Source of the DNA: a virus
Lineage: Duplodnaviria > Heunggongvirae > Uroviricota > Caudoviricetes
Strand: one strand, 5' to 3'
DNA: 64,000 nt
Virus record (IMG/VR): IMGVR_UViG_3300045450_000050
Coordinates: 7,343-71,342 of that record
Positions 4,701-57,075 of this stretch are shown here, piece by piece. The position numbers were made by a program, and so were the translations under genes. Position 1 is the stretch's first letter. Each line of letters opens with the position of its first letter. The notes beneath the pieces were generated by a model. It was not told where the DNA came from. It saw only the letters and a program-made list of their open reading frames with translations, and searched no databases.

Positions 4701-5402
4701 TCAGGTATCTCTGGCGAAAGTCAGAACTGATCTGAGCACCATCAGAGCCTCGTCATGGAGGACGCGAGCCAGCGGCTGGGAGATCTCCAACTCGGCCGCG
4801 ATCTGTGGGAACTCGTGACCGTAGTAGTACCGCAGTGCGATCACAGAACGCTGAGCGATGGGCATCGAGTTCAGCACCTGAGACATGGACAGACGGTAGC
4901 TGTCGGTGGGCAGCAAAGCTTCCGGCTTGCGTCCTGGATCGGCGTGCTCGTCCCACGCGTTGTCGAACGACACGCCTGAGGCCTCGACCGCCGCGACGAT
5001 GGAGCGGATCTTATCGGGAGCCATGCCGATGATGGGGGCTAGCTCCTCTGGTGACTTGCCTGCGCCGTAGCCGTTCTCCAGCAGACTCTTGTACGTGTCA
5101 CGCTGTCGGCGAGGGACGTGGTCCTGTGAGCGCTGCCAATCGAGGATGGCTCCCGCCACGACCTGCTTCGAGTAATTCCCGAACCCAAGGTACGGGTCGT
5201 AGTTCTCGTCGTTGTCTGGTCTGCTCGGGTCGAACTTCTGTGCCGCTTTCACCAGCCCCTGATAGGCGATGGAGATCAGCTCATCCAGCGGCAGCGTCTT
5301 GCCACTGCGCTCCCAGAAGCTCTTCGCAACGCCATGCGTCTGCGGGAGCCAGCCGGTGATGAATCTGTTCTGCTGCGGCGTGAGTGGTGTCTCCATGCTC
5401 AT
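4701..5402 (-). CDS. RNA polymerase sigma factor, FliA/WhiG (sigma-28)-like
   Basis: Region 2: DELISIAYQGLVKAAQKFDPSR..FGNY..VAGAILDWQRSQDHVPRRQR; region 4 HTH: QRSVIALRYYYGHEFPQIAAELEIS; 233 aa. Confidence 0.88.
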   Translation of the reverse strand: MSMETPLTPQQNRFITGWLPQTHGVAKSFWERSGKTLPLDELISIAYQGLVKAAQKFDPSRPDNDENYDPYLGFGNYSKQVVAGAILDWQRSQDHVPRRQRDTYKSLLENGYGAGKSPEELAPIIGMAPDKIRSIVAAVEASGVSFDNAWDEHADPGRKPEALLPTDSYRLSMSQVLNSMPIAQRSVIALRYYYGHEFPQIAAELEISQPLARVLHDEALMVLRSVLTFARDT

Positions 5403-48469: not shown

Positions 48470-48797
48470 TGTAGGTCACCCCATCCAGGATCAGGCGAGC
48501 AGGCTCGAACGACCAGTCCACCTTCACCCAGTCGTCGCCGACGAACTTCTCGACAGAGACCACGTCGGAGACGTGAGTGCTGCGAGCCAGATCCTCCTGC
48601 CCTCGCTTGACGCGGAAGGCCCGCTCGATCCACTGCGTGAAGGTGCCTCGTGGCTGCTCGTAGGACCAGATCTCGGACTGTGCATTCAGCAGCGCGTGCA
48701 GGAACTCGCTCTTGGACTCGTAGATCTTGCTCATGCGAGTCGGGTACGACGCGCCGTAGCGCTTGCGCAACGTGATGCGGAACAGCTCGGTAGCCAT
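48459..48797 (-). CDS. hypothetical protein
   Basis: Start MATELF overlapping lipoprotein stop. Confidence 0.65.
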   Translation of the reverse strand: MATELFRITLRKRYGASYPTRMSKIYESKSEFLHALLNAQSEIWSYEQPRGTFTQWIERAFRVKRGQEDLARSTHVSDVVSVEKFVGDDWVKVDWSFEPARLILDGVTYSDD

Positions 48798-49015
48798 CAG
48801 CGAGCCTCGTCCCAGTCGCACGAGATGCCTCCGTTGTAGCCGCCGTCCCAGAGGATGCAGGTCACGGCACGCCCGTCAGGCGTGTCCACAGTCTGGACGG
48901 TGATGTCTCGGCTGCTGCTCTGTGTGCTCGGAGAGGACGACTCGAAGGGCGAGGCACATGCCGTCAGGCCCAGAGCCAGGAGTACCGCAGTGGCGGTGAT
49001 GGTCAGTCGCTTCAT
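48797..49015 (-). CDS. small lipoprotein
   Basis: MKRLTITATAVLLALGLTAC: signal peptide with lipobox LTAC; leaderless start. Confidence 0.8.
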   Translation of the reverse strand: MKRLTITATAVLLALGLTACASPFESSSPSTQSSSRDITVQTVDTPDGRAVTCILWDGGYNGGISCDWDEAR

Positions 49016-49091
49016 GACCGTTATACGCCTGGGAAGTGCTCTCCATGCACTCTCGCGTGCACACACGTACGCCTACGCGCTCGCGCCGTGT

Positions 49092-49376
49092 TTAATCTTC
49101 TCCTCTCAGGGGTCCGAGGAGCTTACTCAGGAGGGAAGGATAGGGCCCCTTACCCCACCAAGTGCGCGTTACGCGCTAACCTGTGGAGATGGCTCGCAGA
49201 GTCGGAACGCCATCGTTCTCAGTCCTGCGGCCAGGCCCTACCTCCTGAGTTTGCTCCTCAGAACCCTGACGGAAGATCAAGTCCTCAGTCTGGCCTGTCG
49301 GATGCTACGCATTCCTCTTCGGTCTGCGCCCCTGTCGGTCGGAGTCACGTGTGTGACGGCCCCTACTCATCGAGTG
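49092..49376 (-). ncRNA. candidate ~290-nt structured RNA with long rod
   Basis: About 45-bp interrupted stem 49092-49147/49234-49280; TTGCAA-N18-TAGAGT upstream on minus. Confidence 0.5.
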
Positions 49377-49382
49377 CCGCCG

Positions 49383-49412
49383 ACTCTACGACCTCCCCAA
49401 CGATTTTTGCAA
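49383..49412 (-). promoter_or_regulatory. sigma-A-like promoter TTGCAA-N18-TAGAGT
   Basis: Read directly; -10 fits TANNNT. Confidence 0.55.
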
Positions 49413-49470
49413 CTGGACACGCGGAGGGTGTATCCGGAGGCCCTCTCGTGCGTATAACGGGTACGGTCTG

Positions 49471-49500
49471 TTGACTATTAATGCGTGTACGCGCTAACCT
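49471..49500 (+). promoter_or_regulatory. sigma-A-like promoter TTGACT-N18-TAACCT for the plus-strand cassette, overlapped by operator motif
   Basis: Read directly; AGGAGG RBS at 49526-49531 downstream. Confidence 0.65.
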
Positions 49501-49535
49501 CAGAGTCACACCGTTAGCGCGTATCAGGAGGAAAC

Positions 49536-49901
49536 ATGGCTGCACTGCCCGAAGGTCTGACCCAGAAGGACATCGACCGCTACGCCCAGCTCGACGCCGG
49601 GATCAAGAAGCTCGCCGACGAGCACAAGACGCTCAACGAGAAGATCAAGAAGGCGCACGAGGACGCAGGCATCTCGGGCAAGAAGACCCTGATCTACACC
49701 TCCGACAAGTACGGCTCCGTCATCGTCAAGATCGGCGAGCAGAAGCGGCTCGACGCCGCCGCGCTGGAGGAGAAGCACCCCTACGAGCGCTTCCCGCAGT
49801 TCTGGCGCATGCAGTTCGACAAGGACGCCGTCCCCGCCGACGTGCAGGCCAAGTTCCGCACGAACATCATCCCCACGCTCTCCATCTCGACGGGCGAGTA
49901 A
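49536..49901 (+). CDS. hypothetical protein with N-terminal coiled coil
   Basis: 121 aa, AGGAGG RBS, strong GC3 codon bias. Confidence 0.85.
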   Translation: MAALPEGLTQKDIDRYAQLDAGIKKLADEHKTLNEKIKKAHEDAGISGKKTLIYTSDKYGSVIVKIGEQKRLDAAALEEKHPYERFPQFWRMQFDKDAVPADVQAKFRTNIIPTLSISTGE

Positions 49902-49904
49902 GGC

Positions 49905-50150
49905 GTGGCTCTCGAAGACGAACTGCGCGACCGTCGCGCACGCATCGCGGCGGCGACCACTCGCAAGGTGCGTGCTGAGGCCGAGCATGAGTCCGCCGTC
50001 TCCCGGTTCAAGATCGCCAAGGAGACCCTGGCGAGCGAGCACGGCGTCACGTCGATGGCGGAGGGTCGCGAGAAGCTTGCCGAGCTGAAGACCGCCCTGG
50101 AGACCGCCCTGGTCGAGGCCGACACGAAGCTGAAGGAATCCGGCGCGTGA
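49905..50150 (+). CDS. small coiled-coil protein
   Basis: 81 aa, entirely helical heptad character. Confidence 0.8.
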   Translation: MALEDELRDRRARIAAATTRKVRAEAEHESAVSRFKIAKETLASEHGVTSMAEGREKLAELKTALETALVEADTKLKESGA

Positions 50151-51385
50151 GCCCAGACCTCAACGACCTCGTCGAGATGGAGCATGACGATCCGGAGATG
50201 GTTCCGGAAATCGTGCCTGCCTCGGCTCGGTTCTCGGTGAGAGCACCCGTGAGCAAGCTGCGGGTGCTCTTCTCGCGCTGCAATGACGTTGCCATTTCTT
50301 CCGCCGACAAGGAGGTCCTCCCGGGCACGTCTTCACTCTTGCTGGAGGCGGTGCCCTCTGCGAAGGGTGCGCTGCCCTACCTGCGTGCAACGGCCTCGGA
50401 TGGCGACACCACCGTCTCGGTCGTGTCGGATGGCGTGGTCATTTCCCGACATGGATCAGTCCTGCTGCCTGCGCATCGTGTCCACGAGATTCTGAAACTG
50501 GCTCCCGGCACGACGGCTCAGATCGTCGTCGAAGGCACTACCGCGACCATCCGCTCTGACCGGGCCCTGTGGACTATCCAGGTGCCTGCTACGAGCGAGG
50601 TGAGCGCCTTCCTGGACACCTCCAAGGTGCAGACAGCACCCGTGCCCATTCAGGCCTTCACAGAGGCTCTGATGGCTGCACGGCGCGCTGCGTCTGCCAC
50701 AACAGCCCGAGAGTCCCTGATGCAGATCCAGCTCCGCAACGGGGCGTTCACGGGGGCGGACGGCGGACGGGTGCACCGCGCCCTGGCTGAAGGTGTATCT
50801 CCCGAGCTGACGGTCACCCTCCCGGTGCGTGCAGTCGACGAGATCTTGAAGGCAGGGCGCGCCTCAGACACCACGTACGCCGAGTTCGGCTATGACGACA
50901 GCCATGTCGTGTTCGAGTGTGACAGCGGACGCATCGTCGCGCAGCGGATGCAGGTCGACTTTCCTGCATCCATCGAGAGCCTGCTGATGGGTCCCGCTTT
51001 CACGAACACGCAGATCCTCCAGGTACGCCGACGAGACCTCATCGACACGATCAAGCGTGTGCGAGTCAACGCCAACCCTGACTCCGCCGCTGTGACGCTG
51101 TCTCTCGCGCCCGCGCACATGGGAGCCCTGGATCTGGTGGTCAGCGCTCGGGATCAGGCGCACAACAGCTCGCAGGAGACCCTGGAGTGTGTCTGGCAGG
51201 GCTCGGAGAAGAACTACCCCTCGATCACGCTGAACCACAACTACCTGATCGACTTCCTGGAGGTCCAGCACGGTGACGTAGTGCAGTTCCTGATCGGGGA
51301 AGACACCAAGACCGTGAAGACCCCTGTGCTCATCGAGAAGGATGGCTTCACCGGCATCGTGCAGCAAATGTATTCGGTGCGCTGA
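50147..51385 (+). CDS. dnaN: DNA polymerase III beta-like sliding clamp
   Basis: Three-domain repeat; ATASDG, TGADGGRVHRA, DFP..ESLL, LNHNYLIDFL, GIVQQM. Confidence 0.88.
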   Translation: MSPDLNDLVEMEHDDPEMVPEIVPASARFSVRAPVSKLRVLFSRCNDVAISSADKEVLPGTSSLLLEAVPSAKGALPYLRATASDGDTTVSVVSDGVVISRHGSVLLPAHRVHEILKLAPGTTAQIVVEGTTATIRSDRALWTIQVPATSEVSAFLDTSKVQTAPVPIQAFTEALMAARRAASATTARESLMQIQLRNGAFTGADGGRVHRALAEGVSPELTVTLPVRAVDEILKAGRASDTTYAEFGYDDSHVVFECDSGRIVAQRMQVDFPASIESLLMGPAFTNTQILQVRRRDLIDTIKRVRVNANPDSAAVTLSLAPAHMGALDLVVSARDQAHNSSQETLECVWQGSEKNYPSITLNHNYLIDFLEVQHGDVVQFLIGEDTKTVKTPVLIEKDGFTGIVQQMYSVR

Positions 51386-56912: not shown

Positions 56913-57075
56913 GCCCGTTATACGCGTTAGCGCGTATCGGTATCAACCATAAAGTCGAGAATGTCGAAATTGTGTTGCTCAAATGCCCATTCGCGCAATT
57001 CCTGCGCCCGCTGCATGTCCCCGCGGCGAACGGCTCGGCGCACCTCGTCCTTGTAGGCGCGCACCAGACCAGCCG

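Follow-up and report, generated by a model that had tools for sequence, protein, structure and literature searches.

A non-coding RNA of ∼290 nt is predicted to be read leftward, from position ∼49376 to position ∼49090 on the minus strand, in an intergenic region among the replication genes of this phage. We put the probability that the element is a real minus-strand structured RNA at roughly 85%. The initial annotation of this DNA had proposed a minus-strand phage RNA of this size, a proposal now supported by covariation, strand asymmetry, a conserved promoter, and a lack of coding signal. The window, by which we mean the whole 64-kb stretch of DNA that was analyzed, corresponds to bases 7343-71342 of a 135,342-bp phage record (GC 63.5%). 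Only one relative is in culture, Microbacterium phage Magritte (133 kb); it shows ∼76% identity to the RNA element.

The element sits in a 520-bp intergenic gap between a 72-aa gene and a divergent 121-aa gene (Table 1), with gene strands called by a GC1>GC2 rule. The 72-aa protein has a lipoprotein-like N-terminus, and its gene lies outside the RNA. To the right, a three-gene block (49536-51385) encodes the 121-aa protein, an 81-aa protein, and a sliding-clamp-like protein, while nearly all other genes of the genome are oriented leftward. The surroundings form a replication module containing a clamp loader, a Rad50/SbcC-like ATPase half, and the sliding clamp. The last of these, a 412-aa protein (window 50147-51385), has weak matches to DNA polymerase III beta domains; its counterpart in Magritte, gene 247, is annotated as an ASCE ATPase, and the orientation of the 412-aa gene relative to the 121-aa gene is inverted between the window and Magritte. 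The 121-aa neighbor was considered as an RNA-binding partner and set aside for want of an informative fold match: its AlphaFold model (pLDDT 79) combines a long helix with a beta sheet, and a Foldseek search against the PDB returned no match with E below 0.6. Elsewhere in the genome, an array of 15 tRNA genes lies on the minus strand outside the window (genome 119305-121707; L077 11306-13707). Matches to sigma-70 region 2 occur in two frames, at window 4776-5357 (genome 12118-12699) and at genome 6543-6689, and one of the two, the 291-aa frame, matches sigma-70 region 4 as well; the phage sigma factor assumed in the initial annotation is thus represented by at least one encoded sigma-like protein.

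Table 1. Positions of the element, its parts, its promoter, and its flanking genes in the window
Feature	Position	Strand	Basis or remarks
72-aa gene, left of the RNA element	48797..49015	(-)	ORF GC3 0.79; PHROG 3641 match
Region directly 3' of the rod	49070..49091	(-)	In relatives, AT/CU-rich for 25-40 nt, then tandem CGCGAG CGCGAG
Rod: long helix P1-P3 closed by a three-way junction	49092..49280	(-)	z = -5.3; model R1
Invariant GGGGUAAGGGGCC, 3' strands of P7 and P4 joined by AAG	49144..49156	(-)	Identical in 14/14
Junction helix P7 and apical hairpin	49157..49189	(-)	P7 invariant
Junction hairpin P5/P6 with conserved loop (RAYGR) and bulged A	49190..49233	(-)	Covariation
P4 5' strand UAGGGCC, entering the junction	49234..49240	(-)	GGGCCU invariant in 13 sequences
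Remaining 5' domain, subgroup-specific hairpins	49281..49343	(-)	MFE folds of window and homologs
Hairpin H1 GUCAC-ACAC-GUGAC, then conserved UCCGACC	49344..49357	(-)	Covarying stem
5' motif UAGGGGCC	49358..49365	(-)	Near-invariant NAGGGGCY, 14 homologs
Predicted transcription start	49375..49378	(-)	5-8 nt downstream of -10
-10 hexamer TAGAGT	49383..49388	(-)	TA[GCT]NNT in 14/14; starts 22-27 nt upstream of UAGGGGC
-35 hexamer TTGCAA	49407..49412	(-)	TTGC[AG]N in 14/14 homologs, 17-18 nt from -10
Divergent 121-aa gene	49536..49901	(+)	52 homologs; GC3 0.95; anchor for finding relatives

Relatives, fold, and covariation

Fourteen distinct copies of the element were assembled, comprising the window, Magritte, and metagenomic or viral contigs. 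Relatives were drawn from the DNA around twelve of the 52 metagenome homologs of the 121-aa gene and from metagenome, viral, and genome collections, in which the invariant GGGGTAAGGGGC block was sought by pattern matching; most scan matches were due to chance, and these were removed using flanking motifs and the covariance model R1. Subgroup A consists of the window, Magritte, L014, L029, and L046, and subgroup B of L004, L007, L011, L012/L019, L013, L015, L020, L047, and L069. Every copy adopts a common fold shape with arms that differ in sequence, and each of three complete genomes carries a single copy. The window and Magritte are near-identical in the junction and apex over ∼110 nt but share only 61% identity in the adjacent protein.

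In the collections scanned, the element is confined to a lineage of ∼130-kb Microbacterium-type actinophages. Pattern scans yielded no copy in bacterial chromosomes, and the two matches labeled as MAGs proved to be phage contigs. Two RNA-bearing contigs, L072 (CAZIWB010000017.1, 126 kb) and L069 (CAVPLE010000037.1), are filed in public MAGs assigned to Cellvibrionaceae and Holophagaceae; because the 126-kb L072 contig is a whole phage genome of the lineage, this binning is probably wrong. Scanning viral contigs with exact apex patterns gave no match, as the apex of subgroup B differs, and the 121-aa neighbor used as a query against viral contigs found no related locus. With its filters off, R1 did not align the relatives L009, L016, L018, or L006. 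In L009 (1007-1757, minus strand) the invariant block is missing and GGGGGCUGGGGGC replaces GGGGUAAGGGGCC, but the promoter, a GGGGGCUA-hairpin start, and GGGGGCUGGGGGCACUAUCC within a long fold are kept; L009 probably carries a third, diverged form of the RNA, out of reach of R1. A literature search on this phage group or RNA returned nothing relevant.

Both strands of region 49085-49415 fold more stably than shuffled sequences, with folding energies of -154.9 kcal/mol for the minus strand (z = -5.3) and -131.5 kcal/mol for the plus strand (z = -3.4). The minimum free energy (MFE) fold of the minus strand is a 189-nt rod with 44 outer pairs, as expected from the arm pairing described earlier (49092-49147 with 49234-49280), and its internal loops and bulges are 1-6 nt in the consensus fold, the largest being ∼6 nt. 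The rod is real and not a chance fold. A protein-coding role for the region was ruled out by the flat codon-position GC of the two overlapping ORFs (49088-49474 and 48855-49457), whose GC3 of 0.55-0.65 compares with 0.73-0.95 in the neighboring genes.

Several measures point to the minus strand as the sense strand. Among model pairs in all homologs there are 72 G.U cells as compared to 8 A.C cells, with 4 and 0, respectively, in the window alone, and this bias indicates selection on one strand. The initial annotation had argued for a minus-strand RNA from the same kind of G.U pairing in this one sequence, and the argument carries over to the homologs. Paired cells amount to 94.9% on the sense strand and 85.9% on the antisense strand, the MFE is lower on the sense strand in all 14 sequences, and several G.U pairs beside the junction are invariant.

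The fold is further supported by compensatory changes. A covariance model (A6, R1) built from subgroup B alone recovers all subgroup A members with E values of 1e-9 to 1e-12 and has no other match in 320 kb of fetched DNA; under R1 the rod of the window scores 66.5 bits (E 1e-12). Pairing is found at 94.9% of pair cells in a structural alignment of 13 sequences, as compared to 75.5% in shuffles and 34-53% with slid partners, and compensatory changes on both sides are found at 43 of 58 pairs. Since a structural alignment is fitted to the model, the count was repeated on a plain MAFFT alignment of subgroup B without structural fitting, where 21 of 58 pairs remained compensatory versus 8.9 ± 1.9 in shuffles and 2-7 with slid partners. 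All homologs come from one phage lineage, so that these counts overstate the number of independent events, but the effect is still large. Covariation across related phages, to which the initial annotation had looked for confirmation, is therefore present, and R1 links the two subgroups. It is seen at each pair of helices P1, P2, P5, and P6, with compensatory changes in all 27 pairs of P1-P2, 8/8 and 6/6 pairs of P5/P6, and 97-100% of P5/P6 cells paired; helices P4 and P7, at the junction, are invariant.

The 5' domain begins with the near-invariant motif and hairpin H1. This hairpin was among those noted upstream of the rod in the initial annotation (GTCAC/GTGAC, 49344-49357), and it covaries across homologs, with stems of GUCAC/GUGAC, GCGUC/GACGC, GCGCC/GGCGC, GUCGC/GCGAC, GUCUGU/ACAGAC, or GUCAGC/GCUGAC. 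The remainder of the domain can be aligned within subgroups only; an example of its hairpins in the window is GCGCA...UGCGU at 49307-49329. Within the rod, P4 pairs GGGCCU with GGGCCY, includes conserved G.U and U.G pairs, and leads to a three-way junction from which two arms extend. All 14 copies share the same junction sequence, GGGGUAAGGGGC, and by sequence comparison the invariant core of the junction is made up of GGGCCU, GGGGUAAGGGGC, the bulged A, and the conserved hairpin loop. The apical stem, by contrast, varies in sequence between homologs with pairing always kept. Of the sub-stems assigned earlier to the apex, CCAC/GTGG and GCGCG/CGCGC are present, but GATGGC/GCCATC is not: in the covariation-supported fold, GAUGGC forms the P6 hairpin loop and GCCAUC is divided between P5 and P7.

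Promoter, flanking sequences, and the apical motif

The promoter recognized in the initial annotation, TTGCAA-N18-TAGAGT (49412-49407 and 49388-49383, minus strand), is conserved in 14/14 homologs; its hexamers are maintained, while the spacer sequence varies freely. The -35 hexamer directly follows a strong terminator-like hairpin in most copies. The strand bias, the conserved promoter, and this upstream hairpin together suggest that the element is its own transcription unit on the minus strand, with the RNA predicted to start near 49376.

Subgroup B carries an additional gene of 59-62 aa between the RNA gene and the 121-aa gene, on the strand of the RNA (L007 1731-1910, L004 1729-1914, L012 1722-1910, L013 1729-1914, L015 1732-1914). 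A strong terminator closes this gene directly before the RNA promoter. The window and Magritte are without it.

On the 3' side, mean GC falls to 0.44-0.46 just past the rod as compared to a background of 0.62 (14 homologs). This AT/CU-rich stretch often holds small hairpins or GATC clusters; the window is without the small 3' hairpin found in most relatives. The hexamers that follow are conserved, with GCGCGAGCGCGTAGGCG as the window counterpart of the tandem CGCGAG. Past the rod, only 4 of 14 homologs, the window not among them, have a hairpin followed by a U-rich tail, and it is weak (dG -5 to -7).

The first gene downstream of the RNA varies and may encode the 72-aa lipoprotein-like protein, an 81-aa protein, a 216-aa ATPase, or a GH25/LysM lysin. 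Several of these genes lack a Shine-Dalgarno sequence and are preceded by a box of their own. A conserved GGCGTAT[AC]A box is found 4-14 nt ahead of the start codon of the first leftward gene (49021-49029 in the window), with counterparts in L001, L007, L012, L014, L015, and L046, and a related GCGCGTATCA precedes the rightward gene. From their sequence and placement, boxes of this type may provide mRNAs that are leaderless or nearly so with a phage-specific start signal. The initial annotation had given the next gene a leaderless promoter, and this stands in part: in several homologs the box precedes an ATG without a Shine-Dalgarno sequence, but the box departs from the TANNNT consensus, and a Shine-Dalgarno sequence is present in other homologs.

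The apical arm on P7 carries a palindrome, GCGCGTTACGCGC (49164-49176), together with GTTAGCGCGT (49180-49171). The latter occurs ∼44 times in the genome, and ∼25 gene-strand copies lie inside promoters of the form TTGYGC - GTTAGCGCGTGACGTGC - AAGAAT, in which the 13-bp palindrome occupies the spacer, ∼70 nt before the start codons of small genes. Promoters with the fixed palindrome are found in the window at 56926, 60399, and 63701, and most lie outside it at genome 76-103 kb. To judge from these sequences, the operator of a single regulator seems to have been incorporated in many early promoters. Magritte has the same motif in 23 forward and 5 reverse copies. The rod apex contains the spacer sequence without the flanking hexamers. 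In the window's subgroup the apical palindrome may tie the RNA locus to that regulator. However, a genome-wide search of the subgroup B genome G001 found no GTTAGCGCGT motif, and the apex sequence of G001 itself is not repeated elsewhere in that genome. As the fold is kept where the motif is absent, the motif is a feature of the subgroup and not the conserved function of the RNA, and a role for the apex as a general operator mimic was ruled out. The operator motif noted earlier in the apex is thus confirmed for the window, but it does not extend to relatives that lack it genome-wide and have another apex. On the far side of the promoter, the motif recurs twice more as an inverted pair of the 11-mer TACGCGCTAAC (49488-49498 and 49513-49523), the arms being 14 bp apart. 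The pair overlaps with the 5' UTR of the rightward 121-aa gene and with the likely promoter of that gene (TTGACT-18-TAACCT), and from its sequence and position it is probably an operator or leader hairpin.

Possible functions of the RNA

We tentatively favor, at somewhat less than even odds, a self-contained protein-binding RNA rather than only a leader. Host RNA polymerase would start at the housekeeping-type promoter TTGCAA-18-TAGAGT and, given the promoter type, the RNA would probably be made early in infection. The transcript would consist of the 5' domain, with UAGGGGCC, the covarying hairpin, UCCGACC, and further hairpins, followed by the 190-nt rod ending in the three-way junction. The RNA itself would be the product; its long helix would give stability, and its invariant junction would most likely dock a protein of either phage or host origin. 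Four points underlie the preference for a self-contained RNA: a dedicated promoter, termination of the preceding unit ahead of the element, downstream genes that differ and often bring start signals of their own, and a conserved core that goes beyond the needs of a leader. Against a stand-alone RNA, several homologs have a Shine-Dalgarno sequence at the downstream gene, so that translation from read-through transcripts is possible, and only 4/14 homologs have even the weak hairpin and U-rich tail expected of a discrete transcript. It is possible, if improbable, that the element represents a new class of large structured phage RNA with the three-way-junction core as its functional center, which could be a component of a hitherto unknown ribonucleoprotein (for example, one acting in takeover of host transcription, RNA decay, or a defense system), a ligand-binding or catalytic RNA, or a replication primer.

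The main rival is a cis-acting leader on the leftward early/replication operon, which would act through put-like terminator resistance, attenuation, or an RNase III processing or stabilizing site. Directly after a conserved promoter, the element heads a ∼40-kb run of same-strand genes, among them those for the clamp loader and the Rad50-like ATPase; these genes are not set apart from the RNA by any strong conserved terminator, and a long near-perfect duplex is a plausible RNase III substrate. In L007, L015, and L046 the weak hairpin uses the 3' basal strand of the rod, resembling an antiterminator/terminator choice; this overlapping hairpin is, however, weak or missing in most homologs, the window included, and a rod of ∼45 bp is too stable for a switch. 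An invariant junction is also more than a processing site needs, the put RNAs have a quite different shape, and the first downstream gene is variable and often has its own box in place of a Shine-Dalgarno sequence. On balance, a leader is unlikely. A transcription-primed replication origin, in which the promoter, structured transcript, and AT-rich stretch would start DNA synthesis in the manner of the T4/T7 promoter-plus-unwinding-element origins or the ColE1 preprimer, would account for the single copy per genome, the location inside a replication module (clamp loader, sliding clamp, Rad50-like ATPase), and the position at the point from which nearly all genes run one way. The conserved GC dip of ∼30 nt after the rod (0.44 versus 0.62), which contains the lowest-GC 30-mer of the locus in 4/14, and the tandem CGCGAG hexamers and GATC clusters past the dip also fit an origin. 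Yet cumulative GC skew takes no turn at the RNA locus, the AT-rich stretch, short where present, is missing from the window, and neither iterons nor an adjacent initiator gene were recognized. The transcript is not G-rich (GC skew -0.06 to +0.08), so nothing favors a persistent RNA-DNA hybrid, and an R-loop-prone G-rich transcript was dismissed on the same values. An origin of this kind is accordingly quite improbable.

The initial annotation had suggested, as one idea, a 6S/Ms1-like decoy that binds host RNA polymerase and aids handover to the phage sigma factor. A rod-like RNA that is probably early and probably abundant would suit such a decoy, as would the sigma-like proteins encoded by the phage and, in the window's subgroup, an apical hairpin that copies the spacer of phage promoters in the non-template sense. 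This promoter-like apex nevertheless lacks the -35 and -10 hexamers and is absent in subgroup B, whose genome has no such motif; moreover, the rod has no central bubble that could mimic an open promoter, and Rfam gave no 6S/Ms1 match at E <= 10, making the decoy a very unlikely explanation. Even less credible, to the point of being scarcely tenable, is a DNA-level element only, that is, a cruciform, a single-strand DNA hairpin, or an operator cluster without a functional RNA. Both strands do fold better than shuffles, and three copies of the operator half-site lie in the intergenic region. Set against this are the G.U over A.C bias (72 versus 8), the promoter conserved in the right place and direction in 14/14, an 86-nt center and bulges that disfavor cruciform extrusion, and the kept fold in subgroup B, which is without the operator motif. 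The DNA cruciform origin offered earlier as the alternative to an RNA is disfavored by the same pairing bias and conserved promoter and by the missing GC-skew switch.

Comparison with known systems

Few structured RNAs of ∼300 nt combine an invariant core with extensive covariation, and those that have been studied are usually ribozymes, riboswitch-like sensors, or ribonucleoprotein scaffolds. Searching Rfam 15 with 1.5 kb of the window (E <= 10) and with five homolog loci (E <= 1) gave no match on the element, in keeping with the earlier remark that no known family could be recognized. Like 6S and Ms1 RNAs, the rod is long, imperfectly double-stranded, similar in overall size, and possibly an early abundant transcript; it differs in shape because there is no large central bubble, the apex instead being an invariant three-way junction with two hairpins, and it adds a 5' domain of ∼110 nt.

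The HK022 put RNAs and other cis-acting antitermination RNAs (EAR) also lie just after a promoter at the head of a long one-direction operon. The put RNAs are ∼70 nt and form two adjacent stem-loops, whereas the element, at ∼290 nt, is four times larger, folds as a rod with a three-way junction, and is present in one copy per genome; in addition, the genes downstream of the element often seem to have their own start signals. A terminator competing with the closing helix, as in a riboswitch or attenuator, was not found in the window, and the weak hairpin of 4/14 homologs is the nearest approach to one; nor is the same class of gene found downstream in each case. The phi29 pRNA resembles the element in having a helical domain, a three-way junction with two hairpin loops, and an early promoter, but it is found in small protein-primed podoviruses, is 117-174 nt long, and pairs through its two loops with other copies of itself. 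Inspection by eye revealed no evident loop-loop complementarity of this kind in the element.

A further comparison is with the Y RNAs (YrlA) bound by Ro60, as the phage encodes a Ro60 protein and Y RNAs too are closed by a long stem of distant segments. The phage Ro60 (614 aa, with TROVE and vWA_Ro60 domains) is encoded at genome 113124-114971, 57 kb from the rod, and two tandem YrlA-like RNA candidates are located 150-460 nt upstream of its gene on the same strand. The gene and candidates together span genome 113124-115431 (L077 5125-7431), outside the window, and the candidates score 43 and 32 bits, below the Rfam cut-off of 69. Ro60 is also encoded by Magritte and G001. With YrlA-like RNAs beside the Ro60 gene, the rod was rejected as its Y RNA, and Rfam searches of the window and the five homolog loci found neither a YrlA match nor a tRNA-like module in the rod element.

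By position, the nearest analogue is the Pleft RNA of cluster A mycobacteriophages. In L5, D29, and StarStuff an abundant, stable, and toxic early non-coding RNA is made from Pleft; the L5 RNA is ∼500 nt, is processed, and contains no conserved ORF (PMC5712189). Both are actinobacteriophage non-coding RNAs of a few hundred nucleotides, and both have an early housekeeping-type promoter heading leftward early/replication genes, a placement that is predicted from sequence in the present case. Expression, stability, and toxicity have been shown for the L5 RNA. Homology between the two was considered and rejected, there being no detectable similarity in sequence or structure, and R1 had no match in the right end of L5 (50500-52297) at E <= 10. 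The element is probably among the first transcripts after infection, heading the replication genes of a poorly studied ∼130-kb actinophage lineage, and because Magritte is cultured with a laboratory host the RNA is directly testable. A second, unrelated family in the role of the Pleft RNA would suggest that early non-coding RNAs are general in actinophage infection.
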